DNA from: a phage
Strand: one strand, 5' to 3'
NCBI GenBank assembly: GCA_018167155.1
Contig: GCA_018167155.1_4332.1
Length of the DNA stretch: 43,803 nucleotides
Shown here in pieces: positions 2,083-38,664 of this stretch. The notes beneath the pieces are model-generated. The model was not told the origin of the DNA. It did not search any database and worked only from the letters and a program-made list of their open reading frames with translations. Numbering within the stretch: the stretch's first letter is position 1; the number at the start of each line of letters is the position of its first letter. The position numbers and the translations under genes are program-made.

Positions 2083-2585
2083 TCAACTCTCCCGCACGCA
2101 CGACACACAACATAATCCTCGTCAGACAACACCCAATCGTGCTCGCATTCCTGAGTATCGTTTTTCGGTTTATATTCCTTGTCGTCCCACTCACGTTTAC
2201 AACATTTAGAGCAAAGCTCACTACCAGGAACGTTGTTCGGATTGCCTTCGCTGAGAAACAACCCAGGCATAATAATCCAAGAGTGCTCGCATTCCTGAGT
2301 ATCTTCCTTACGGCAACCGGATTGCTCAGGCCCGTGCCCACCTACTACGTAGCTCTCCCCTTTAGGTAAAGGACCGCCCCGCCCTGTTACGCGGCCAAAG
2401 TCTTCATTCATCAACTTTATTGTCTCCTGCAACTCAGCCACCAGTGCCGAAGCATCACGTAACTGGTTCTTAAGTGACAGCACCTCATGGGCCAGGTCTT
2501 CGCACTGTTGCTTGTATGGGTTGTTACTTACCTGCTGCCGTAGCTGGTCAATCAGGTATTCGAATACTTCGTTTTTGTTACTCAT
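2079..2585 (-). CDS. Cys-rich hypothetical protein, paralog B (two copies of the QEC-H-W module)
   Basis: 168 aa; N-terminal coiled coil, then SGCRKEDTQECEHSW and DTQECEHDW repeats and a C-terminal CRACG. First gene after the leftward promoter at about 2616-2644. Confidence 0.55.
   Translation of the reverse strand: MSNKNEVFEYLIDQLRQQVSNNPYKQQCEDLAHEVLSLKNQLRDASALVAELQETIKLMNEDFGRVTGRGGPLPKGESYVVGGHGPEQSGCRKEDTQECEHSWIIMPGLFLSEGNPNNVPGSELCSKCCKREWDDKEYKPKNDTQECEHDWVLSDEDYVVCRACGRVE
2148..2303. repeat. Two exact 21-bp direct repeats (GTGCTCGCATTCCTGAGTATC) inside paralog B
   Basis: Copies at 2148-2168 and 2283-2303; a related copy sits near 1561-1580 in paralog A. Confidence 0.7.
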
Positions 2586-2615
2586 CTCTGTCTTTCCTCT
2601 CGTTTGTGTAAATGA

Positions 2616-2644
2616 ATAGTAGCCTATTATATCTTAGTGTGCAA
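2616..2644 (-). promoter_or_regulatory. Sigma70-like promoter (minus-strand TTGCAC-N17-TACTAT) with embedded AATAG-N4-CTATT palindrome
   Basis: Plus-strand gtgcaa at 2639-2644 and atagta at 2616-2621 with 17-nt spacing; palindrome AATAGTAGCCTATT at 2615-2628; 30 nt upstream of the start at 2585. Confidence 0.6.
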
Positions 2645-2791
2645 GTAAATTTTATTGGTGTTTGTATTGTTGCATCTCCTGCAATAGTCGCTTTGATTGT
2701 TGCGTTTGGTGAAATAGAACAAAAATGATACGCTGCTGGGTAGCAGCGTAAGTCACTCAGTAAAATCCCAAACTATTGTTACAATATAACA

Positions 2792-2977
2792 TCACACTTC
2801 TGGTGGCTCTGGTAACGGCATCCAGTGTGTGATATCACCATGATATAAACTCTTTGCGGGCCCCCAGTAGCCATCTGAATTAACACGCATAACCTCACAG
2901 CCAACAAAACCATCAGTTACAAGAACGTATTCATAAGGCTCTGGCATCCGCTGACTACACTTAACCCACTCACTCAT
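2792..2977 (-). CDS. DUF551-family phage protein
   Basis: 61 aa with W...RMPE...THWMPLPEPP, the signature I recognise for DUF551; SD GAGGTGA upstream. Confidence 0.6.
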   Translation of the reverse strand: MSEWVKCSQRMPEPYEYVLVTDGFVGCEVMRVNSDGYWGPAKSLYHGDITHWMPLPEPPEV

Positions 2978-2980
2978 AAA

Positions 2981-3124
2981 TCACCTCGTATTCATCGCAT
3001 ACTGCACACCAGCTTTCCACGCCCGCCACGCGAGACGCGTCTTAACGTTCAGGTACTCTTTCTTTGAACCCTTGTTAACAGGCAGACCCTCGACGACGGC
3101 CCACCGTTCGAATGCTTCTCTCAT
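2981..3124 (-). CDS. Hypothetical small protein (about 47 aa; hand-called, below track cutoff)
   Basis: ATG overlaps the upstream stop as ATGA and its stop lies 3 nt before the DUF551 start; reads MREAFERWAVVEGLPVNKGSKKEYLNVKTRLAWRAWKAGVQYAMNTR. Confidence 0.35.
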   Translation of the reverse strand: MREAFERWAVVEGLPVNKGSKKEYLNVKTRLAWRAWKAGVQYAMNTR

Positions 3125-3396
3125 ATGCGCGTCTCCTTCTTATCATTTACATGCACCCAAAACTCACCACCAGCCCAACACCACAGAAGCCACTCAGTTC
3201 GGCGCACCCAGCCATAGTCCTTTCTTGCGCTAATCGGATAAACGTCTTTGCAAAAATAATACCCTGTACTAAGAAACTCAGGGTCGCGCGTCGCGGTGCG
3301 CCACATGTTGTAAAACTGTTCAAGTCCGGCGCCACGGCGCAATACCTGTATTTTATGCAGGGAACTGGAAACATAATTAAGTTCGTTATTATTCAC
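3121..3396 (-). CDS. Hypothetical protein
   Basis: ORF track 3121..3432; a GTG at about 3396 preceded by AGGGAGG is the likelier start. Confidence 0.45.
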   Translation of the reverse strand: MNNNELNYVSSSLHKIQVLRRGAGLEQFYNMWRTATRDPEFLSTGYYFCKDVYPISARKDYGWVRRTEWLLWCWAGGEFWVHVNDKKETRI

Positions 3397-3628
3397 GGCA
3401 ACCTCCCTCAGAGTCGTCGGCACTCGCATCATGATTCGATGCCGTTGTGTGTACCTTCGCCTCGGCTTTAGTTACTGGCACTTTGTAATGTCCTACCTTA
3501 ATCCACCAGCCATCGTTACAGGAGTCCAGCATATCAAAAACATCACCAACATTTACGCCTATGCTTTCCAGAGTATCGTTAGCTGTTTCGTAGGTAACGG
3601 TGTTATCTGTAATTATGATTTGCATCAC
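3389..3628 (-). CDS. Hypothetical protein
   Basis: 79 aa ORF, co-directional and tightly packed with its neighbours. Confidence 0.5.
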   Translation of the reverse strand: MMQIIITDNTVTYETANDTLESIGVNVGDVFDMLDSCNDGWWIKVGHYKVPVTKAEAKVHTTASNHDASADDSEGGCRE

Positions 3629-3822
3629 TTCACCCCTTTGAATTTAAAATTGTTGCCGATGAGTTCTAAATCGGATGGCTTGCGATACGCTATCCATGAA
3701 CCTGTAACAGTTTTAACAGGCAAGAATCCTTTAAATTCAGATTCAATATTAATAGGCTTGCTGACAACCTGAACTAAAAGCCCTGTACCTATATCCCTGG
3801 CCAACTGACCCTTCTTAAACAT
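3625..3822 (-). CDS. Hypothetical protein (first gene of the leftward operon)
   Basis: ORF track 3625..3831; ATG at 3822 preceded by GAGGAGTGAGGG; promoter immediately upstream. Confidence 0.5.
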   Translation of the reverse strand: MFKKGQLARDIGTGLLVQVVSKPINIESEFKGFLPVKTVTGSWIAYRKPSDLELIGNNFKFKGVK

Positions 3823-3856
3823 AACCCTCACTCCTCTGTCTCGTTCCGATAAGTGA

Positions 3857-7281: not shown

Positions 7282-7354
7282 TTGATATGTGAATAGTACC
7301 ATATTAATTATTTTATAAAAGCACATTGACATGTGAATAGTTCGCTATTATAGT
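7282..7354. promoter_or_regulatory. Divergent control region with two copies of the AATAG-N4-CTATT operator-like palindrome
   Basis: Copy 1 AATAGTACCATATT at 7292-7305; copy 2 AATAGTTCGCTATT at 7336-7349 inside TTGACA(7326-7331)-N17-TATAGT(7349-7354), which drives the + gene at 7386. A minus-strand TACTAT over copy 1 may serve the XRE gene. Confidence 0.55.
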
Positions 7355-26814: not shown

Positions 26815-27231
26815 CTACTTTTCCTGTAATGCTTTGCGCTCAGCGTTATGGAACGCAGCTACCTGTGTGCCTAATGCCTTGAACTGGTCGAGCAACTTGT
26901 TAAACGCTTCCTTAGAGAAGGGCTCATCAAAGCTCCAGCCGTTTACAACTTCTGCTGCAAGTTGCCGGTTGAGGTCTTCCGCCAGTTCGTTAACCGCCAG
27001 GTTATATTCAGTATAGTCGCCGGTTTCTTTGGCGGCTTTTTCCAGTTCTTCAAAACGCGCCAGTCCGCGACGGTACGCGATAATGAAAGCACGCCCCGCT
27101 TTAACGGCGACATCCGCATCCGGGCTTACAACATTAAGCCATTCCCCCGAGTCTTCACCATTCGGCAGGAGAATCGGCATCTTCTTGCCTACCAGCGCTT
27201 TCTCTTCGAAATAAAAATCAGAAAGTTTCAT
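26815..27231 (-). CDS. Tail assembly chaperone (gpG-like)
   Basis: 138 aa acidic protein just upstream of the tape measure gene; candidate slippery site GGAAAAG before its stop. Confidence 0.6.
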   Translation of the reverse strand: MKLSDFYFEEKALVGKKMPILLPNGEDSGEWLNVVSPDADVAVKAGRAFIIAYRRGLARFEELEKAAKETGDYTEYNLAVNELAEDLNRQLAAEVVNGWSFDEPFSKEAFNKLLDQFKALGTQVAAFHNAERKALQEK

Positions 27232-27338
27232 TCTTTAATCCTTTGGTTAAGAGGTTACAGGTTAAGGAAAATGCGCCAGACGGGAACCACCCGCTTTTCG
27301 TGTGCGACACTAGGCGCAAAATTATTCTATCACATTAC

Positions 27339-27367
27339 TTGCACACCCCAATATAATAGGGTACTAT
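27339..27367 (+). promoter_or_regulatory. Sigma70-like promoter TTGCAC-N17-TACTAT with AATAG-N4-CTATT palindrome
   Basis: TTGCAC 27339-27344, TACTAT 27362-27367, palindrome AATAGGGTACTATT at about 27355-27368. Confidence 0.6.
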
Positions 27368-27396
27368 TCACTTACACCAACAATGAGGGGTTTAAA

Positions 27397-27588
27397 ATGT
27401 CAAGTTTACCAGTTTCCTTAATCCTGTTTGCACTTCTCGCCTATTTCGCACCTTTCCTGGTTGCATATTTCCGTAACCATAAAGCGAAGTTGGCGATATT
27501 CATGGCCAACCTGTTTCTCTGTTGGGTTCTGCTGCCGTGGGTATTTATTTTAATCTGGGCGTGCAACTCGAATGTTAACGAGAAGTGA
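27397..27588 (+). CDS. Superinfection immunity (Imm-like) small membrane protein
   Basis: 63 aa; YFAPFLVAYFRNHKAKLAIFMANLFLCWVLLPWVFILIWA matches the Imm_superinfect pattern as I recall it. Track ORF 26962..27588 is a longer frame; the ATG at 27397 follows SD GAGGGG. Confidence 0.55.
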   Translation: MSSLPVSLILFALLAYFAPFLVAYFRNHKAKLAIFMANLFLCWVLLPWVFILIWACNSNVNEK

Positions 27589-27626
27589 GCTAGTATAGGA
27601 CAAATCCTAAACACGAGGAAGTAAGC

Positions 27627-28757
27627 ATGGCCCGTAAGAAAATAACCGACGAACAGTTACAGGAAGAATTGAACGCCGGAATGAAGAATATCGATATAGC
27701 CCGTAAATACGGCATCTCAGACCGCGTTATTCGTATCCGTAAAGCGAAGCTGGCAAAGAAAGGCGTAGGCCACGGCCGCGACGTCAGCCACCTTGTACCG
27801 GACGGCTACAAGATTAAAGGCACGTCGTCACTGGTGGACGAGTTCGGCAACACTAAGCTGCAATGGGTTAAAACCGACACTGACGCCGAACGTCAGGTCG
27901 AGTTGATGAAAGCCGTAATCGAAGGCATGAAGTCAGAGATTACGCCGGTTGCGCCTGTTAAAGCTGCACGCGTCAAACGCGACGATAAACTACTCAATCT
28001 TTACACTGTATCTGATTTCCATCTCGGTATGCTGGCCTGGGCCGACGAGAGCGGCGACGACTGGGATATGAAAATCGCGGAAGACCTGTTCTCTCGTTGG
28101 TTCGACGCGGCGTTTCAGAAAGCGCCAGATGCAGGAACAGGGGTTATTAACCTGCTGGGCGACTTCGCGCACTTCGATAGTCTGGATGCCGTTACCCCCG
28201 AGTCGCGTCATGTGTTGGACGCAGACACTCGCTACCAGAAACTGGTGCGCTACATGATTCGTATGGTGCGCCGTGTTGTTGATATGGCGCTGGTTAAGCA
28301 TAAAAATGTCCGCTTGCTCATCGTGCAAGGGAACCACGACGAGAGCGGAATGATTTGGTTGGCTGAGATGTTTAGCACTCTGTACGACAACGAGCCGCGT
28401 GTGTTCGTCGATACGTCGCCGGATGTGTACAAGATGGTGCAACACGGCAAAACGACATTGTTCTTTACCCACGGACATAAAGCGCGCTTCGACGCTATCG
28501 AACCGGTTATGATTGCCAAGTTCCGCAAAGCGTTTGGTGAGAGCGTTTACAGCTACGCCCACGTAGGACACCTACACCATCAGAAGATTGTAGAAAGCCG
28601 TAATATGATTGTTGAGCAACACCGCACCTTAGCGGCTAAAGACGCCTACGCCTCCCGCGGCGGATGGATGTCAAGCCGCAGTGCAAACGTAATTACTTAT
28701 AGCGCCGAATATGGCGAGGTTGCACGTTTAACTATTTCACCGGAGATGCTGGGATGA
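27627..28757 (+). CDS. Calcineurin-like metallophosphoesterase with N-terminal HTH-like domain
   Basis: 376 aa; ordered motifs SDFHLG (DxH), GDFAHFD (GD), QGNHDE (GNH[DE]), THGH, GHLHH (GHxH); N-terminal KNIDIARKYGISDRVIRIRK looks like an HTH. Confidence 0.65.
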   Translation: MARKKITDEQLQEELNAGMKNIDIARKYGISDRVIRIRKAKLAKKGVGHGRDVSHLVPDGYKIKGTSSLVDEFGNTKLQWVKTDTDAERQVELMKAVIEGMKSEITPVAPVKAARVKRDDKLLNLYTVSDFHLGMLAWADESGDDWDMKIAEDLFSRWFDAAFQKAPDAGTGVINLLGDFAHFDSLDAVTPESRHVLDADTRYQKLVRYMIRMVRRVVDMALVKHKNVRLLIVQGNHDESGMIWLAEMFSTLYDNEPRVFVDTSPDVYKMVQHGKTTLFFTHGHKARFDAIEPVMIAKFRKAFGESVYSYAHVGHLHHQKIVESRNMIVEQHRTLAAKDAYASRGGWMSSRSANVITYSAEYGEVARLTISPEMLG

Positions 28758-28984
28758 CTTCAAAATACAACCGAACAATGACAAACACTCACGGCAGCAC
28801 TATGACCGTAGACGTTTACGATGTTCTCCGTGCATTCGACATCCGTGACCCCGCACTACAGCACGCATTGAAGAAACTATTGTGTATGGGTCTTCGCGGG
28901 CACAAGGACACCGGAACCGACTTAGCGGAAGCAATTGAAAGTCTGGAGAAGTTACGAGAGTACCGTAGTAATATAGATGAGTAA
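28754..28984 (+). CDS. Hypothetical protein
   Basis: 76 aa, ATGA-coupled to the phosphoesterase gene. Confidence 0.45.
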   Translation: MTSKYNRTMTNTHGSTMTVDVYDVLRAFDIRDPALQHALKKLLCMGLRGHKDTGTDLAEAIESLEKLREYRSNIDE

Positions 28985-28991
28985 GAATGTA

Positions 28992-29150
28992 ATGAAAACA
29001 ATATACGTAATCCGCGTATATGACGAAGAATGGGATGAGTGGGTTGGTATTTATGCTGTTGGTAGTAAGGAAGAGGCCTCGAAAGAAATGACAGAACGTA
29101 GTAACCGAGGTCAGTTAACTAACTTCTATGAAATGCCATTCAAAAGTGAG
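28992..29150 (+). CDS. Hypothetical small protein (hand-called, 52 aa)
   Basis: Reads MKTIYVIRVYDEEWDEWVGIYAVGSKEEASKEMTERSNRGQLTNFYEMPFKSE; ends 5 nt before the terminator. Confidence 0.3.
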
Positions 29151-29154
29151 TGAG

Positions 29155-29183
29155 AAAAGGCCCCGTTAGGGGCCTTAGTTTTA
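29155..29183. terminator. Bidirectional terminator (strong on minus strand after the tail tube gene)
   Basis: AAAAGGCCCC-GTTA-GGGGCCTT-AGTTTTA, a near-identical copy of the element at 17224. Confidence 0.7.
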
Positions 29184-30353
29184 GGCGTAACTAATACGCT
29201 GGATGACAATAGATGACTGGTACTGGTTGCCTGTGGACTGCCCTTCTATACTTTGAGTAATTGATTCCGGACCAGATATTTCTGGTGTAACAGCCGTAAG
29301 TTCGGCGCGTTTCAAACTGAAAGACATAGCCCCGTTTACCCCAGCCAGAATAGAGTTAATCTCTACCTGCTGTTCGTTGATAAACTTCTGAATCATAGCC
29401 ATATCGTACAGCTTACCGGAGATGGAGAAGGTGTTAGCTGCGCGGCTACGTTCCACAAACGCAACGTTAGAGTTGCCGAGTTCGAACTGTGCGGACGCGC
29501 TGTTGTCGTTGGTGATGGTAAGGCTATCGCAACGCAACGGGGTAGAACCGTCGAACACAGAAACGTCGACCGAGGAGAACGGCTCATCACCAAACGTAAC
29601 GGAAGAGAAGTCAGAACCAGACGGCGCCGCGGTGAGAATCTCCTGGCTGCGACCGATGAACGGGAAGCTGCCCGTTACCATCGCGTTAACGGCCTGCTCA
29701 ACGGTAAAACCAGAAACTTCCACGCCTTTGGTTAACGTGTACGCGTCAGTCCCGCCGCACTGGCCTTTGTACCAGGTGAGGATAGAGAACGTCTTACACG
29801 CGTTACCAGTTTCCAGTTTGTCGCCGGTCTTAGCCGCAGTAGTGGCAGTCTCTGTGGTGAGGGTGTGCTGAATGCCCGCACCGGTAACTACCAGTGCCTC
29901 TACCGAGGTAACGATAAACGGTTTTGCGTTGTCGCCCGTCAAGTCGGTAAACGCAATCAGGTCACCCACTTCAACGCCGTCAGTAATGAAGCTGCCATCA
30001 GCACGAGTGAACGTCTTGCCCGCCGGTGCGACGGTAATCGATAGACTGGACAGGGAAACACCGGATTGCCACGTAGAGCCTAAAGCACCCGCCAGCCAGT
30101 CGTCCTGGCTTTTCGAGCTAAGCTCGATCGCGTATTCACCGCTAACCTGTTTGTTACCGGTGCGGATGGATGTAGTCTCACGGCTGCCGTCCAGTTCGTT
30201 GGATGTCAGCGTGTCTCGGGTAATAGCAGGAACGCCACCTGTGTTACGCAACGGCGACCATACCGGGTTAGTCGGTGTTACGCCCGGGGTGACTTCCGCC
30301 ACATAGAATTGCGCGGTAGTCGCGCCCTTAAAAGGAGTTGTAGCCATATTCAC
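29181..30353 (-). CDS. Major tail (tube) protein
   Basis: 390 aa Thr/Ser/Gly-rich protein upstream of the chaperone and tape measure genes, followed by a strong terminator. Confidence 0.65.
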   Translation of the reverse strand: MNMATTPFKGATTAQFYVAEVTPGVTPTNPVWSPLRNTGGVPAITRDTLTSNELDGSRETTSIRTGNKQVSGEYAIELSSKSQDDWLAGALGSTWQSGVSLSSLSITVAPAGKTFTRADGSFITDGVEVGDLIAFTDLTGDNAKPFIVTSVEALVVTGAGIQHTLTTETATTAAKTGDKLETGNACKTFSILTWYKGQCGGTDAYTLTKGVEVSGFTVEQAVNAMVTGSFPFIGRSQEILTAAPSGSDFSSVTFGDEPFSSVDVSVFDGSTPLRCDSLTITNDNSASAQFELGNSNVAFVERSRAANTFSISGKLYDMAMIQKFINEQQVEINSILAGVNGAMSFSLKRAELTAVTPEISGPESITQSIEGQSTGNQYQSSIVIQRISYA

Positions 30354-34636: not shown

Positions 34637-35338
34637 TTATTTCCTCAGGGCTTTAAGTTGCCGTTCAAATTCGGCAGGGTTCGATTTATACAGAGCTAAA
34701 CGCTCCGCTTCACTCATGTCTTTAAACGCTGGTGCGGCCCCGCCGCATTTGCCACCGGAAGCCCCGCCGCCGGAAGCTGCATTTGCTTTAATCAAATGCG
34801 AAAACGCTTTGTGTTCACGCAGGTATTTGCGGAACTGTTCCGGGTCAGTCGTGATTACGTTACCGTCTGCGCCAACAAACTTAGTAACCACATCATCACC
34901 TTCGAACTCAGTCTTAACGAACGGTGCAAGAATGTCCACTGCTTCCGGGGTGATAAAGTCGCCCGCGAAAGAGCCTAACACCGCTTTACGTTCGCTGCCG
35001 AGGATGCGCTCAGCCATTTTGGTGATGCGGCCATCTTTCTCGGCTAACACCGGGTCATACTGGCTACGAATCGTCTTTTCGAACTCGTCCATTTTACCAG
35101 CGGCTTTTAACGCCTCCTGGTGTGCACGTTGCCGTTCTTCTTCGGCCTCTTTTGCTTTGCGAGCGGCTTCTTTCTTCTCCGCCAGCAATGCTTCCTGATT
35201 GGCCTTAAGACCGGCAACTTCTTTCTCAATCAGCGCCTGAACTTCTTCAGCGGTGAACATTTTCGGAGCGTCACCGCCACCGGCTTTATCTTCTGCCCCA
35301 GCTTCTTCCTGGAACGGATAACGTAAAAAACGATTCAT
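34637..35338 (-). CDS. Capsid scaffolding protein
   Basis: ORF track 34637..35392; ATG at 35338. Highly charged coiled-coil sequence (EALLAEKKEAARKAKEAEEERQRAHQEALKAAG) immediately upstream of the capsid gene. Confidence 0.65.
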   Translation of the reverse strand: MNRFLRYPFQEEAGAEDKAGGGDAPKMFTAEEVQALIEKEVAGLKANQEALLAEKKEAARKAKEAEEERQRAHQEALKAAGKMDEFEKTIRSQYDPVLAEKDGRITKMAERILGSERKAVLGSFAGDFITPEAVDILAPFVKTEFEGDDVVTKFVGADGNVITTDPEQFRKYLREHKAFSHLIKANAASGGGASGGKCGGAAPAFKDMSEAERLALYKSNPAEFERQLKALRK

Positions 35339-35420
35339 AGTCAGTATGTCCCCTGGACGTTGGAACCCGGGCCACCCGGATTTACATGTCAAGAATAAAT
35401 TATTCCAACATGCAAGGCAA

Positions 35421-35684
35421 CTATTCCAGAATATTCCTCACGTAATCCTGCAACATGAACACTTTCAGTCTCAGTTGCCGTACGCATTCGGCATTCTGAA
35501 CGTCGATAGCCAAATCCTCGTCAGCGTCGTTACTTGGCGGCGCCAGTTTGCACGGCGGCTGCATCATCGTCGTATCCGGGGATGGAATTGGCGTTGGCGA
35601 CGGCGCGGGACTTGAGCTGCACGCGCTCAGGGTCAAAAGTGCACACGCTGCGACCAGGCGTTTTAATGTACTTAACGACTTCAC
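35421..35684 (-). CDS. o-spanin (Rz1-like outer-membrane lipoprotein), overlapped with the i-spanin gene
   Basis: 87 aa in a different frame; signal peptide with lipobox LTLSAC, then Pro-rich SSSPAPSPTPIPSP. Starts inside the Rz-like gene and extends past its stop. Confidence 0.65.
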   Translation of the reverse strand: MKSLSTLKRLVAACALLTLSACSSSPAPSPTPIPSPDTTMMQPPCKLAPPSNDADEDLAIDVQNAECVRQLRLKVFMLQDYVRNILE

Positions 35685-35916
35685 GGGTAATCACCTCTGA
35701 TTTCGTCTTGCCTTCGTTGTCAGCGGCTGCGGCCTTCGATTCATCCTGCTGCTGCCGTTGTGTTTTCTTCGCTAACTCAGCCTGTGCTTTCTGCTGTTGC
35801 TGCGAAACGAGATTCTCCCGGCCTTCGCCCCAGCCGATGCGGTATTGATAGTAGCCGTGTGCGTATAACAGGATGATGAAACATGCTCCCGCTACGACAG
35901 TTGCTTTAAGATTCAT
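35530..35916 (-). CDS. i-spanin (Rz-like)
   Basis: 128 aa; N-terminal transmembrane segment TVVAGACFIILLYAHGYY, then Gln/Ala/Lys/Glu-rich coiled coil; perfect SD AAGGAG 5 nt upstream. Confidence 0.65.
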   Translation of the reverse strand: MNLKATVVAGACFIILLYAHGYYQYRIGWGEGRENLVSQQQQKAQAELAKKTQRQQQDESKAAAADNEGKTKSEVITREVVKYIKTPGRSVCTFDPERVQLKSRAVANANSIPGYDDDAAAVQTGAAK

Positions 35917-36140
35917 GTTTCTCCTTTCTAGATAAGTAAAGCCCCGCCTTAAAGCGGGGCGCTAGTCCTTATCATTTAAACATAGAAACGGCGTAATCTC
36001 AGTAAACCAGTTACTTTTTACACAAGCAATAGAGTATGGCCCTTCCGAACGCGTCAGCGTAACTACACTCAGGACTTACGTCCCGCTCCGTTACCTGCCC
36101 GCGCCGCGGTCGCTTGTTCATACTTCACAAGCTCAGGTGG

Positions 36141-36184
36141 AGCTTAGCACATTTTCAGTTAAAAGTCAACTATTCGAATAGTTT
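36141..36184 (-). promoter_or_regulatory. Candidate leftward promoter (TTGACT-N17-TAAGCT) abutting a 16-bp perfect palindrome AACTATTCGAATAGTT
   Basis: Minus-strand -35 from plus agtcaa 36164-36169 and -10 from plus agctta 36141-36146; palindrome at 36168-36183. Confidence 0.35.
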
Positions 36185-36235
36185 ATTCCAACATTTACAA
36201 TTGAGCGGAATAACTGGAATAGGTAAATAAATAGT

Positions 36236-36264
36236 TTGCAGACACCAGTATAATAGGGTACTAT
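36236..36264 (+). promoter_or_regulatory. Sigma70-like promoter TTGCAG-N17-TACTAT with AATAG-N4-CTATT palindrome
   Basis: TTGCAG 36236-36241, TACTAT 36259-36264, palindrome AATAGGGTACTATT. Confidence 0.6.
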
Positions 36265-36298
36265 TCAGTTATCGAAGCGAGAGATAAGGGGCTTAAAG

Positions 36299-36535
36299 AT
36301 GAAAGAATTAATTATCGCGGTATTGACGACACTGGCAGTTTCGCTGGCAGTTTCGCTGGCAGTTTCACTGGTAATTGCTGCTGGTGTACGTAGCCTAGAT
36401 AAACACGAGTGTGAGAACTACGGAGATGTCACAGGCAGAGAGGTAATGTATAGTTACACAACTTGTTATGTGAAAACTGATAGAGGTTTTATCCCTCGTG
36501 GAGAACTTAATTTTAGAGCAGCGACACATGAATAA
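36299..36535 (+). CDS. Small membrane-anchored protein with tandem AVSL repeats
   Basis: 78 aa; N-terminal hydrophobic LIIAVLTTLAVSLAVSLAVSLVIAAGV encoded by three tandem 12-bp repeats, then a 50-aa Cys-containing domain; own promoter and terminator. Confidence 0.6.
   Translation: MKELIIAVLTTLAVSLAVSLAVSLVIAAGVRSLDKHECENYGDVTGREVMYSYTTCYVKTDRGFIPRGELNFRAATHE
36334..36369 (+). repeat. Three tandem 12-bp repeats (GGCAGTTTCGCT-like) inside the CDS
   Basis: Directly visible: ctggcagtttcgctggcagtttcgctggcagtttcactgg. Confidence 0.7.
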
Positions 36536-36538
36536 AAC

Positions 36539-36564
36539 TAAGGCCCCATAACGGGGCCTTTTAT
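36539..36564. terminator. Terminator hairpin between convergent genes
   Basis: AGGCCCC-ATAAC-GGGGCCT followed by TTTTAT; identical stem to the element at 38641. Confidence 0.65.
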
Positions 36565-37025
36565 CATTCTGGCTTAGTAACCTTCGCCGCCTTGCTTACC
36601 GCCTCAACTCCATCGGCATCGGTAACTTTAACGAAGTATTCGCCAACGGCATTAACCGTCAGGGACAGGGCCTCTTCCGGGGCGTTTACCACTTCCTTAC
36701 CGTCTTTGTACCAGGTCAGCGCGTATGGCGCTTTTCCAGCCTTAACCTCGACAGTGATAGTCGCGCTGCCGTCTACCAGTTCAGCGTCCTGGGGTTGTAC
36801 GGAGAAATACACATCACCTGCGTCCGCCAGATACGGAATCTCGTAAAACATGCCCGCCGCCGGTAGCGCAATACCGGTCTTGTCTGCAAACGGCATATCG
36901 TCTACCGGTGTACCGAGTACACTTTCGTCTTCAATAAACACCACGTTCTCGCCGGAGCCAGACACGCGGGCATACTGGACTACACGACGCGACGGCACAT
37001 CTGTTACTTTGAAAAAGCCCATCAT
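36564..37025 (-). CDS. Hypothetical structural protein with C-terminal Ig-like domain
   Basis: 153 aa; TITVEVKAGKAPYALTWYKDGKEV is Ig-like. Confidence 0.5.
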   Translation of the reverse strand: MMGFFKVTDVPSRRVVQYARVSGSGENVVFIEDESVLGTPVDDMPFADKTGIALPAAGMFYEIPYLADAGDVYFSVQPQDAELVDGSATITVEVKAGKAPYALTWYKDGKEVVNAPEEALSLTVNAVGEYFVKVTDADGVEAVSKAAKVTKPE

Positions 37026-38070
37026 TATTCCCCTTTCAGATAATCAGCAACACGTTTATCGAGTTCCGCCATCTGCTTAAGTGTGAGCGGATTCCCGAAA
37101 CAATCTACAGATATTACGCGAAACTCTTCTGGCGATATACCGCTGTTGCGGAAAATCTTACCTCGCACCGGGCCGAGGGCTTCATCCACGAACCACGCCG
37201 GTTGTTGTTTCAGGAACTCGTAGTAAGTGGTGTCTGCGCTTACCTGAGTACCTCCGTCCGCACCCTTAGCCGCACGTTTTGCACCTTTATCGAGGAAGTC
37301 GAACTCTGAACTGATTACAGGCGCAGTGGTCGTTCTGCAGTTAGGATGGAAAGGTGGCCTCGGCCCTTTGCCGATTTCGTATTCCTGCCCGTCCAGGCTA
37401 CGGCATATTGTTGATGTACGACTGTCGAGTGTGGCGACGATTTCGTATTTCTCGATGATGTCGTCGTTCTGGCGGTACGTCTCGTTGCGTGCTTCGTTGG
37501 ACACGTGAGACAGCGCAGTACGTATTACCGTAGCGGCGTTACGTTCAGAGATGTCAGCCAGTCCACCAGCGCCTACGACATTCTTAACAATCTGCCGTGT
37601 TGTTTGGCCTTGTACAAAGCCCATCTTAACGCCGGTTACCAGGCGAGCGACTTCGGTTTCACCCCAGCCAGACATCAACTTAGTGAAATCAACCGGCTTG
37701 TCGCTTAGCGATAGCGGTTGAAACTCGGCGGCGGCCCACACCTGTTCGGCGGTAGGCGTAACAAATTCCGCATTAACGTTGGTGGTAAGTGTCTTTACGT
37801 TCCACTCTGCTTCATATGCCGCCAGTTCCTTAAGGTCTTCTGTCAGCTTTGTCTGCCAGTCACCAGTAAGCCCTGTCAGTGCTTCTTCAAGGTCACGTAA
37901 CAGTTTATTCAGTCGCGCTGTGCTGCGACCGTCGTCGCCGAACAACAGCACCTGTCGTTTGATTTCGTCCCGCATTTCCCGGATGAACGGTGTGAGGTCT
38001 TTCACTTCGCCGGATGCGGTGCGTTGCAGCCATATCTGGTGGCTAATTAGGGATGTAAGTAAGCTCATAT
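37025..38070 (-). CDS. Head morphogenesis protein (Mu gpF / SPP1 gp7 family)
   Basis: ORF track 37025..38125; ATG at 38070 after AGGAGGG. C-terminal ICRSLDGQEYEIGKGPRPPFHPNCRTT matches the Mu F HPNCRC signature. Confidence 0.7.
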
Positions 38071-38112
38071 GCCCTCCTGTAGTATCGACAGTGTAACGTA
38101 TAAAAATAATAT

Positions 38113-38141
38113 TTGCAGACACCAATATAATAGGGTACTAT
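38113..38141 (+). promoter_or_regulatory. Sigma70-like promoter TTGCAG-N17-TACTAT with AATAG-N4-CTATT palindrome
   Basis: TTGCAG 38113-38118, TACTAT 38136-38141; the promoter-to-SD sequence is nearly identical to the 36236 promoter. Confidence 0.6.
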
Positions 38142-38167
38142 TCAGTTAACTTAAACAGGAGATGAAA

Positions 38168-38329
38168 ATGGTTACTTTGATTACTTGGGAACACGAAAAT
38201 AGTCAACCTGAAACGCGTGAATTCGAAACTGTAGCGGCTTGCTACCGCCTGGCGTCAGGCGGATTCTATAAATCACAGATTGTAAATGAGTTTGGAGTGG
38301 TGGATTATGAGTTTACGAAACAATCTTAA
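38168..38329 (+). CDS. Hypothetical small protein (hand-called, about 53 aa)
   Basis: ATG 6 nt after AGGAG; reads MVTLITWEHENSQPETREFETVAACYRLASGGFYKSQIVNEFGVVDYEFTKQS. Confidence 0.35.
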   Translation: MVTLITWEHENSQPETREFETVAACYRLASGGFYKSQIVNEFGVVDYEFTKQS

Positions 38330-38651
38330 GAACCACTTGAAGGTCTACGGGCCTTATGGCTTGCATTCATGGAACGGTGGGTATGACGTAAACGATGACC
38401 TGCCGATACGTAAAATAGCACGCGCGGCGCGACGCAATGTAAAGCCGGGTGACGTGCTAGTCATACGAGATAATAATGTCATTGTTGAGGTTGAGAAAGT
38501 TCATGGCATGTTTCTCACAGTAATACCTGTTGATGTTGCTTTGCGTGACGCAAGGCCCTACCGAGAAGCTGGGGGTGGTAAAACTGGTAAATACACATAC
38601 GGCAGGATTGAGATACATAAAACACATCTTGATAAAGTTAAGGCCCCATAA
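38307..38651 (+). CDS. Hypothetical protein
   Basis: ORF track 38286..38651; internal ATG at 38307 after GGAGTGGTGG; 114 aa basic protein. Confidence 0.5.
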   Translation: MSLRNNLKNHLKVYGPYGLHSWNGGYDVNDDLPIRKIARAARRNVKPGDVLVIRDNNVIVEVEKVHGMFLTVIPVDVALRDARPYREAGGGKTGKYTYGRIEIHKTHLDKVKAP

Positions 38652-38664
38652 CGGGGCCTTTTTC
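38641..38664. terminator. Rho-independent terminator between the plus cassette and the portal gene
   Basis: AGGCCCC-ATAAC-GGGGCCT followed by TTTTTCTTT. Confidence 0.7.

Follow-up and report, generated by a model that had tools for sequence, protein, structure and literature searches.

A putative mobile, moron-like cassette encoding a small predicted membrane protein with a private tandem-repeat expansion in a Kagunavirus-like siphophage

The window analysed here, a stretch of 43,803 nucleotides, comes from an E. coli siphophage with a Kagunavirus-like genome. Within it, an open reading frame (ORF) of 78 codons plus a stop codon lies on the plus strand at 36299-36535, starting with ATG and encoding the protein MKELIIAVLTTLAVSLAVSLAVSLVIAAGVRSLDKHECENYGDVTGREVMYSYTTCYVKTDRGFIPRGELNFRAATHE. 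A Shine-Dalgarno sequence, AAGGGG (36286-36291, plus strand), can be read directly from the DNA 7 nt 5' of the start codon, and is kept as AAGG(A/G)(A/G) in homologous cassettes. The neighbouring genes run in the opposite direction: Rz/Rz1-like spanin genes (35530-35916, minus strand) flank the ORF on one side, and a Hoc-like Ig-domain head decoration gene (36564-37025, minus strand), convergent with it, on the other. Near its 5' end the ORF contains a 12-bp tandem repeat (36332-36371, plus strand; units CTGGCAGTTTCG, ..CG and ..CA) encoding AVSL-AVSL-AVSL, which TRF reports with a period of 12, 3.3 copies, 96% match and a score of 73. The first-pass annotation had described this locus as an antisense, self-contained cassette for a single-pass membrane protein with a three-unit repeat and a Cys-containing C-terminal domain. 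That outline stands: the ORF, its repeat and its antisense orientation are real, a promoter element, ribosome binding site (RBS), ORF and terminator can be delimited as a unit which related phages may have, lack or exchange for another, and the C-terminal domain, put earlier at 50 aa, spans 48 aa with two cysteines (C38 and C56).

The cassette had also been credited with a promoter of its own, and this is supported by the conservation and repetition of a 48-nt element ('D1-type', 36224-36271, plus strand), although the hexamers are not those that catch the eye. TATAAT at 36249-36254 has no -35 at a suitable distance, and relatives have CATAAT in its place; a consensus scan of the plus strand found no canonical sigma-70 site for the cassette. 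The predicted promoter consists instead of a -35 hexamer TTGCAG (36236-36241), a 17-nt spacer and a -10 hexamer TACTAT (36259-36264) on the plus strand, of which relatives keep TTTGC. and TACTAT. The putative promoter appears to belong to a phage-wide element with five copies, three on the plus strand (27327, 36224, 38101) and two inverted (2615, 3856), each with an RBS and a small ORF 20-35 nt downstream. Overlapping it is an operator-like palindrome, AATAGGGTACTATT (AATAG-N4-CTATT, 36252-36265), the exact form of which is found 8 times where chance would predict 0.02. The palindrome prompted us to consider the element as a minus-strand promoter of the TTGACA-17-TATAGT class. We do not adopt this as the main reading, since the conserved flank (TTGCAC…) lies on the plus side, the element is missing from the genome in which the slot is empty (L023), and both inverted copies (2615, 3856) stand ahead of ORFs on the minus strand. 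The element may nonetheless have weak divergent activity.

The terminator proposed earlier is likewise predicted, but it would not belong to the cassette exclusively. An 8-bp GC-rich stem (hairpin at 36540-36560) followed by the T-run TTTTATCATT forms an intrinsic terminator at 36540-36569 with a folding energy of -17 kcal/mol (z = -4.6). As the hairpin folds equally well on the minus strand, the terminator is predicted to be bidirectional and common to the convergent Hoc-like gene. A third plus-strand cassette in the same genome ends in a near-identical terminator (38632-38662). Another near-identical copy of the 48-nt element precedes a gene for an Imm_superinfect (PF14373) membrane protein at 27397-27588, which scores 43 bits against that profile (cut-off 27.9 bits). 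In one Kagunavirus transcriptome, the Imm gene of that phage was classed as late, not early (PMC12645636), an observation that counts against the reading favoured below. An Rfam scan of 35300-37100 matched no family. A conserved candidate RNA of ~200 nt neighbours the cassette on the minus strand, from about 36134 to 35935.

Comparison with related phages shows that the cassette occupies a hot insertion slot. Its flanks show 95-99% conservation across 179 genomes, and of 181 related GenBank phages only 1 (EC3-1) covers the stretch that separates the spanin genes from the Hoc-like gene. In other genomes the same position is empty (L023) or occupied by a Dam methylase (S100), an acidic protein of 67 aa (Bas70), a 114-aa lipoprotein together with a 33-aa TM peptide (fBC-Eco01), or a PAPS-reductase with a 70-aa homologue of the present protein (L013, L014). 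Antisense homologues occur at other positions too: L070 has one between its tail-assembly-chaperone and tail-tube genes, and in L071 one adjoins the scaffold gene. The search for a conserved partner gene yielded only the overlapping downstream ORFs of phage bob and L009, which are mutually unrelated.

Morons, as defined by Hendrix and colleagues, are independent units in phage genomes with their own promoter and terminator, for example HK97 gp15, lambda bor and lom, and HK97 gp15 is an inner-membrane superinfection-exclusion protein. The cassette resembles them in being an independent unit, bounded by a predicted promoter and terminator, that separates genes lying side by side in relatives, and in its lower GC content (41.6% against 50.8% for the genome, within the lowest 3% of equal-size windows). 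It is also present, absent or swapped for other cargo among close relatives, and moron cargo is often a small envelope protein. The resemblance has limits: the predicted promoter belongs to a phage-wide regulated class rather than being foreign and constitutive, and the protein has no sequence or fold similarity to characterised moron products. Kagunaviruses are described as virulent (PMC9825357), so that the expression of morons from a prophage, and with it lysogenic conversion, has no counterpart here.

The protein belongs to a large family that carries no annotation. It is a direct HMM member of PHROGs 26710, 18961 and 27356 (E = 6.5e-10, 1.5e-8 and 4.2e-7), which like the related PHROGs 37489 and 9067 are without a functional label, and phrog_26710 is matched by 59 of 59 sampled relatives. 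A search for related loci with a narrow alignment recovered only 4 in IMG/VR; searches for family members gave 55 clusters at 90% identity and at least 1,177 at 50% identity (representatives at E<=1e-3), all of 53-117 aa. Members share one N-terminal TM helix and an alpha-beta3-alpha domain of ~45 aa with the motif C..Y...TGR…CYVKT..G(F/W)IP..E, and the 78-aa protein conforms to both. In family alignments, C38 and C56 are invariant and Y41, T45, R47, V58, I65, P66 and E69 nearly so. The genes are carried by Jersey/Kaguna-like phages, Dhillonvirus, T4-like phages of Acinetobacter, and phages of Pseudomonas and of Providencia; in the T4-like and Dhillonvirus genomes they lie amid replication and early genes, a position that says nothing specific about the envelope. 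For the protein and 59 relatives, Pfam and NCBIfam yielded no meaningful match (a single CsrA match came from the C-terminal extension of a metagenomic relative, P0193), PADLOC-DB HMMs, a library of defence rather than anti-defence proteins, matched neither the protein nor 5 relatives, and a PDB sequence profile search returned chance matches only (E>0.07). We found no paper in the literature on the PHROG 26710/18961/27356 family.

AlphaFold2 (AF2) predicts an unbroken helix over residues 2-45 (pLDDT 86-94), with a pLDDT of 89 for the whole protein and 85 for the C-terminal domain alone, and so agrees with the earlier proposal of a single-pass membrane protein. The predicted transmembrane helix comprises 27 uncharged residues (4-30; 36308-36388, plus strand) with a hydropathy maximum of 2.67 (KD), and its length ranks sixth among 182 family members, whose median is 20. 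Alignments and AF2 place a helix extension, three beta-strands and a helix in the 48-aa C-terminal domain (36389-36532, plus strand), which is predicted to be periplasmic, with C38 in the helix and C56 in strand 2. Most likely, the product is a bitopic inner-membrane protein with its N-terminus inside and its C-terminus outside, in which a C38-C56 disulfide would staple a periplasmic beta-sheet mini-domain of ~45 aa. Export of the domain is suggested by the invariant Cys pair without any other conserved metal ligand, by the two members with plausible lipobox-like motifs, and by K/R in the N-tails, which is present in 80% of members.

The opposite topology, with a cytoplasmic domain whose cysteines would form an intermolecular metal or redox site and which would act on a host factor in the cytoplasm or close to the membrane, for example in anti-defence or host takeover, appears unlikely. 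It draws on the charge distribution around the helix: in a first, cruder analysis, 111 of 201 members had a higher K/R content in the 15 residues that follow the TM segment than ahead of it, and the refined count gave equal densities (N-tail 0.12, TM-to-Cys linker 0.11), so that the positive-inside rule is not decisive. The N-tails of the family are short and frequently acidic, and anti-restriction-type cargo such as the Dam methylase occurs in the same slot. Against a cytoplasmic site, the two cysteines are the sole conserved candidate ligands, with no further conserved His, Cys or Asp, and a few members bear lipobox-like export signals. Nor was there any PADLOC or anti-defence family match, though that library covers defence proteins. 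The lipobox evidence itself needs care. By regular expression, 18 of 200 relatives have lipobox-like motifs, and only those of P0138 and P0155 look plausible. P0138 is the Titan-X 'Lipoprotein', but its motif falls within the segment that aligns as the TM helix, and the label may be an automatic call only. The 78-aa protein itself has no Cys in residues 1-37 and thus no bacterial lipobox of the form L-[ASTVI]-[GAS]-C.

A role in lysis timing, in which the periplasmic domain would bind holin or spanin in the manner of an antiholin such as T4 RI, seems improbable. The ORF directly adjoins the Rz/Rz1-like spanin genes, and a hydrophobic N-terminal segment followed by a small Cys-bearing periplasmic domain resembles the general architecture of RI. 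The adjacency is not conserved, however, as unrelated cargo fills the slot in other phages and the family gene itself is found elsewhere or amid replication genes; the gene is missing from most Kagunaviruses and is therefore not part of a core lysis programme. The strongly hydrophobic TM segment (KD 2.67) is also unlike the weakly hydrophobic signal-anchor-release (SAR) domains, and holin/antiholin profiles gave no Pfam or PHROG lysis-category match.

We also consider it rather doubtful that the protein is secreted into the periplasm, like T4 Spackle, with the N-terminus of the ancestral 70-aa form serving as a cleavable signal peptide (…VIAA|G) that the repeat triplication would have turned into an uncleaved anchor. 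The 70-aa alleles do begin with MK(D/E) and a hydrophobic stretch of about 19 residues, followed by I-A-A-G, where signal peptidase might cut. Yet the cleavage motif is not kept (P0001 has VIAVGM, and phiEap-2, Dhillonvirus and T4-like members have other sequences), the family's median hydrophobic run of 20-23 residues is of anchor length, and AF2 models one continuous helix from the TM segment into the domain.

The repeat at this locus is genuine but rather unremarkable, and we see in it a curiosity, not a mechanism. (AVSL)x3 sits within the 27-residue uncharged run. Every close homologue found (EC3-1 and metagenomic contigs) is 70 aa long and has one unit, as do all five of the five 90%-identity database clusters; alignment of the ORF to EC3-1 and the metagenomic homologues leaves a gap of exactly 24 bp, and among the PHROG family members seen only the 78-aa allele has the 8-aa AVSLAVSL insertion. 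The suggestion that the anchor is 'built from' the repeats must be dropped, since a single unit already sufficed for the ancestral anchor to span the membrane. The 78-aa allele has no match in a collection of 15 billion proteins, and neither IMG/VR nor JGI metagenome contigs contain 2- or 3-copy alleles; 10 JGI metagenome matches carry an unrelated repeat without a homologous ORF. Judged from these comparisons, the additional 24 bp (two units, 8 aa) represent an in-frame expansion private to this genome and not the product of a recurrent contingency locus. The triplication would have arisen recently by slipped-strand, in-frame expansion, extending the membrane anchor from ~19 to ~27 residues and prolonging a 'small-xxx-small' stripe of Ala/Ser; we regard it as tolerated or possibly modulatory, not as a switch.

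The expectation of a copy-number-variable tract is accordingly borne out only in that copy number differs between genomes (3 against 1). It is very improbable that the array is a contingency locus, variable in phase or length, by which the protein is frequently switched or diversified. In favour of this reading, the array consists of perfect, in-frame units, and the genomes compared show two length states. These are, however, the 1-copy state and a single 3-copy state, with only one expanded allele anywhere searched and no further states in IMG/VR or JGI. The 12-bp unit is a multiple of three, so that the array cannot turn expression off, and both added units carry a G missing from the ancestral unit, which points to a few discrete events rather than ongoing slippage.

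The ORF is absent from most close relatives of the phage. Comparison with its close homologues gives dN/dS of 0.18-0.39, as expected of a real gene under purifying selection. That the ORF is a chance or decaying, functionless one, as its shortness and patchy occurrence might suggest, is effectively refuted by the conservation of the family, with invariant residues across its clusters, and runs counter to the dN/dS values, the confident AF2 fold, and the conserved RBS and promoter.

The searches found no similarity, by sequence or structure, to known exclusion, immunity, holin/antiholin or spanin proteins. T4 Imm and PF14373 proteins are small phage inner-membrane proteins, as is predicted here, but the Imm type has two TM helices in place of one TM helix and a folded domain with a Cys pair, and the 78-aa protein does not match PF14373 at E<=1. 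T4 Spackle (Sp) is secreted and blocks the tail lysozyme of superinfecting phage, and T4 RI, a helical domain on a releasable SAR anchor, binds holin. Both are, like the present product, small exported or anchored phage proteins with cysteines, and both act in the periplasm; neither shares detectable sequence or fold similarity with it. An i-spanin (Rz-like) combines a type II anchor with a long periplasmic coiled coil and an embedded or adjacent o-spanin lipoprotein gene, whereas this ORF encodes a 48-aa beta-rich predicted domain and contains no embedded lipoprotein ORF, and the genome has an Rz/Rz1 pair already (35421-35916). The 'lollipop' of type IV pilins and pseudopilins is an architectural resemblance with insignificant scores, the protein being much smaller than a pilin and lacking the prepilin-peptidase motif (G|F…E5).

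Taken together, we lean towards a mobile, moron-like cassette (~36224-36562) that lies among the late genes of a virulent Kagunavirus-like siphophage and encodes an envelope-acting membrane protein. Host RNA polymerase would start at the TTGCAG-17-TACTAT promoter, overlapped by the AATAG-N4-CTATT operator, and transcribe the single ORF against the head and spanin genes up to the bidirectional hairpin. The TM helix of the product would continue into the periplasm, bearing the disulfide-stapled mini-domain, and the protein would most likely bind a component of the envelope, to the benefit of the infecting phage. Superinfection exclusion, that is, a block to entry, is the leading functional candidate, though we hold it only tentatively; it is suggested indirectly by the Imm_superinfect gene behind a near-identical promoter element and by a lipoprotein as alternative cargo of the slot. 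The protein may alternatively affect the timing of lysis or interfere with functions of the host envelope or of host defence. More speculatively, the family, spread over Jersey/Kaguna-like, T1-like, T4-like and Pseudomonas/Providencia phages, may represent unrecognised, widespread phage mini-effectors facing the periplasm, which for example block entry or neutralise envelope defences, with the AVSL expansion tuning the distance of the domain from the membrane or oligomerisation through the Ala/Ser stripe; we think this conceivable, but doubt it.

For this genome, the value of these findings lies mainly in annotation: a hot insertion slot, and a five-member predicted promoter class with an operator-like palindrome. 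The natural allele pair, with anchors of 19 and 27 residues, is a ready-made experiment on anchor length. Should the family act at the envelope, a compact (~70 aa) and broadly distributed module would join the short list of phage exclusion and envelope effectors, and its disulfide domain of ~45 aa would be a tractable probe for a conserved envelope target in Gammaproteobacteria.

The window amounts to an essentially whole siphophage genome of Kagunavirus-like (Guernseyvirinae) type, and an 801-nt query around the cassette matches 181 phage records at 90-99% identity (Escherichia, Salmonella, Kagunavirus, Raoultella), with the middle of the query covered by only one of them, Escherichia phage EC3-1. 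The first-pass annotation had described a 78-aa ORF antisense to its neighbours, and both points hold: the ORF is present exactly as stated at 36299-36535 (+), with a ribosome-binding site (AAGGGG) 7 nt upstream on the same strand, and both of its flanks are on the minus strand. These flanks are an Rz/Rz1-like spanin pair (35530-35916, with an embedded lipoprotein frame at 35421-35684) and a gene for a 153-aa Ig-like protein of the 'Hoc-like head decoration' type (36564-37025). The spanin region (35421-35916, minus strand) comprises a 128-aa Rz-like i-spanin and the embedded Rz1-like lipoprotein frame (…LLTLSAC…), with the scaffold gene on one side and the variable slot on the other; the spanins thus lie within the head-gene block and not beside a holin and endolysin.

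The cassette occupies a site of variable gene content. The ~300 nt to its left (35935-36223) keep 95-99% identity across 179 genomes regardless of what comes next, and to the right of the 36223 boundary gene content varies between phages. The slot is empty in the IMG/VR contig L023, where the backbone continues directly into the Hoc terminator and the promoter element is absent; it holds a Dam methylase in Salmonella phage S100, a 67-aa acidic protein in Bas70, and a 114-aa lipoprotein with a 33-aa TM peptide in fBC-Eco01. Cargo can also be stacked, since in two metagenomic Kagunavirus-like contigs, L013 and L014, the slot carries a 270-aa PAPS_reduct (PF01507) gene (416-1228 and 197-1009, respectively) directly upstream of a 70-aa homologue of the 78-aa protein. 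Homologues occur in other antisense slots, between tail-assembly-chaperone and tail-tube genes (locus L070) and beside a scaffold gene (locus L071). The GC content of the cassette is 41.6% vs 50.8% for the genome, among the lowest 3% of equal-size windows. Given the variable slot content, the homologues in other slots and the low GC, the cassette has the hallmarks of a moron-like accessory unit in a virulent phage, an interpretation that is well supported; three of the four features of a classical moron are found in it at the level of sequence, while the fourth, prophage expression, is inapplicable to a virulent phage.

Transcription from its own promoter and termination by its own terminator had also been proposed. 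A generic sigma-70 scan found no site on the plus strand near the cassette, and the TATAAT at 36249-36254 has no -35 at usable spacing and reads CATAAT in four homologous cassettes. A repeat search nevertheless identified a 48-nt element (36224-36271) with further copies at 27327 and 38101 and inverted copies at 2615 and 3856; all five lie 20-35 nt upstream of a ribosome-binding site and a small ORF pointing away from the element, and share a conserved TTGCA(C/G), a 17-nt spacer and TACTAT. As the element is repeated and conserved in this position, we infer that TTGCAG (36236-41), 17 nt and TACTAT (36259-64) form the cassette promoter, which probably belongs to a co-regulated, phage-wide class; the proposed promoter thus survives in this candidate, and not in the TATAAT. 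The cassette does end in a strong hairpin (36540-36560; 8 bp, -17 kcal/mol, z = -4.6) followed by TTTTATCATT, but it folds with equal stability on the opposite strand and so would serve as terminator for both convergent units, the cassette and the Hoc-like gene.

The other copies of the element precede genes of their own. The first plus-strand cassette in the minus-strand late block (27327-29153) encodes a 63-aa membrane protein of the Imm_superinfect family (PF14373, T4 Imm-type; 27397-27588, +). It also encodes a 376-aa protein in which an N-terminal stretch is HTH-like and a calcineurin-like phosphoesterase domain scores below the Pfam cut-off, and it has two further small ORFs. This cassette lies between a 138-aa gene (26815-27231, minus) and a 390-aa gene (29181-30353, minus), and its site is the putative counterpart of the L070 slot if these are the chaperone and tube genes. 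The third (38101-38662, +), between the head-morphogenesis and portal genes, carries a gene for a 55-aa DUF7170 protein, overlapped by a 121-aa ORF that has no Pfam hit, and ends in a terminator sharing 94% identity with that at 36532-36562; in EC3-1 this slot is empty, with only a degenerate palindrome. At 2585-3831 (minus), the inverted copies at 2615 and 3856 head leftward runs of small ORFs, among whose products are one of 168 aa in which CEH(S/D)W…C motifs recur and others of 68, 79, 103, 47 and 61 aa; these runs look like an early host-takeover cluster.

Tandem 12-bp repeats in the membrane anchor, as first described, were recovered by Tandem Repeats Finder (3.3 copies at 36332-36371; 96% matches, score 73), and encode AVSL-AVSL-AVSL, placed centrally in a run of 27 uncharged residues. 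The suggestion that their copy number might vary stands only in part. Comparison with EC3-1, 96% identical over the whole region, reveals a single clean 24-bp gap of exactly two units; the single unit recurs in three further independent homologous cassettes from metagenomes, and all five database clusters at 68-79% full-length identity are 70 aa long. The exact 78-aa sequence has no record among 153 billion gene positions, and a pattern of two adjacent units gave no match in IMG/VR and only unrelated repeats in JGI metagenomes, so that no second expanded allele appeared in either. Copy number therefore differs between genomes (three here, one elsewhere), but the array appears to be one private in-frame expansion rather than a recurrently variable tract. 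Because the two extra units share TCG at their end where the ancestral unit has TCA, it arose through no fewer than two duplications with a point change between them, or through some equivalent sequence of events. The resulting anchor of 27 uncharged residues is the sixth longest of 182 family members (median 20); with A and S spaced four residues apart, the added units also lengthen a small-xxx-small stripe on one helix face, which could affect helix packing.

The 78-aa gene is a fairly ordinary phage accessory gene of a large uncharacterised family. The protein has no Pfam match, is negative in PADLOC and NCBIfam scans, and matches PHROGs 26710, 18961 and 27356, unnamed families all of unknown function; it belongs to none of the Imm_superinfect, holin/antiholin, spanin and lipoprotein families, whose defining features were each looked for and not seen. 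Using tblastn of phage genomes, its C-terminal domain was found in phiEap-2 (same slot), in the Dhillonvirus phages bob, Envy, SECphi4 and others (among early genes), and in T4-like Acinetobacter phages (between regA and gene 43). A profile search of a 5.8-billion-cluster set yielded 55 clusters, and HMMER, run exhaustively against 1.84 billion representatives clustered at 50% identity, retrieved 1,177 proteins of 53-117 aa at E<=1e-3, of which 122 reach E<=1e-10; further members occur in Pseudomonas phages, Providencia phages and phage Titan-X. The layout is constant, in that a short N-tail leads into a single hydrophobic helix, which 5-10 residues separate from a Cys motif (C-x2-Y-x3-T-G-R-x-T-x-(Y/F)…C-Y-V-K-T-x2-G-(F/W)-I-P-x2-E-x3-R), and dN/dS is 0.18-0.39 among close homologues. 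One 117-aa metagenomic relative, P0193, has a C-terminal extension that matches CsrA over its C-terminal half (Pfam E = 4.5e-7; phrog_9500), the product of gene fusion or of read-through in gene calling.

A confident AlphaFold2 model built on the family alignment (pLDDT 89) has a helix at residues 2-45, short strands at 49-52, 55-60 and 63-66, and a C-terminal helix at 67-76, and the isolated domain returned an identical topology (pLDDT 85). Foldseek found no solved structure significantly alike (best E-value 0.69), a PDB sequence profile search gave chance hits only, and BFVD held only uncharacterised relatives; the helix-plus-sheet 'lollipop' resembles pilins in outline only. Two cysteines are invariant in every family alignment, one on the helix just beyond the membrane, the second on the model's central strand, and with no other conserved metal ligand the pair is best explained as a structural disulfide. 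Such a bond would make the domain periplasmic, and we consider an N-in/C-out orientation probable; the share of members with K/R in the N-tail (80% vs 52% in the linker) and lipobox-like signals in two members (one the Titan-X protein P0138, labelled 'Lipoprotein' in UniProt) lend weak support, while K/R densities equal on either side of the TM helix speak against it.

Superinfection exclusion or entry blocking is ranked first among possible functions, though tentatively, because one of the four other promoter-element copies drives a bona fide T4-Imm-type superinfection immunity protein (PF14373, 43 bits) and because a lipoprotein and a Dam methylase, both typical host-interaction cargo, are among the alternatives carried in the slot. 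A host-takeover or anti-defence factor facing the cytoplasm is doubtful. Control of lysis timing by this neighbour of the spanins, and secretion of the protein instead of anchoring by its hydrophobic helix, are each improbable.

Between the cassette and the spanin start lies a ~200-nt noncoding stretch (35935-36169, minus strand), conserved at 95-99% identity across 179 genomes of Kagunavirus and Jerseyvirus, partly kept in phiEap-2 and the related loci L049 and L020, and without a match in Rfam. It has a good predicted promoter (TTGACT 36169-36164, 17 nt with TGn, TAAGCT 36146-36141), a GC-rich core of several stems and, ~25 nt ahead of the spanin ATG, an intrinsic terminator (35960-35941). 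Folding favours the minus strand over the plus (MFE -42 vs -28.7 kcal/mol; alifold -25.9 vs -17.6), six pairs show compensatory changes, e.g. GUAAC/GUUAC to GGAAC/GUUCC, and several G-U pairs form on the minus strand only; some relatives have a 36-aa ORF annotated here, which a 1-nt indel hits in fBC-Eco01. Possible roles of the RNA are those of an sRNA, an attenuator, or a put-like leader for antitermination in the spanin-scaffold-capsid operon.

An exact palindrome, AATAG-N4-CTATT, overlaps the -10 hexamer of the element and has eight exact copies in the genome (2615, 3856, 7336, 10181, 14748, 27355, 36252 and 38129) vs 0.02 expected by chance. It always falls within promoter-like sequences of two classes, over the -10 of TTGCAC-17-TACTAT or in the spacer of canonical TTGACA-17-TATAGT promoters, the latter (7336, 10181, 14748 and a one-mismatch copy at 7292) heading the plus-strand replication module. 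Overlapping the -35 of the promoter for the minus-strand RNA is a perfect palindrome of 16 bp in which the half-sites are swapped (AACTATTCGAATAGTT, 36168-36183). The authors of the fBC-Eco01 study found the same motif (tgAATAGTa-ccTATTat-T) in seven copies by PHIRE search and attributed it to a phage RNA polymerase (PMC9825357). Its distribution here suggests one phage or host regulator acting over about 10 promoters. Phages of this kind are not known to encode an RNA polymerase of their own. The most interesting by-products of this analysis are the promoter class, with its five members and its palindrome, and the putative minus-strand RNA directly upstream of the cassette, which is highly conserved and structured and ends in a terminator.
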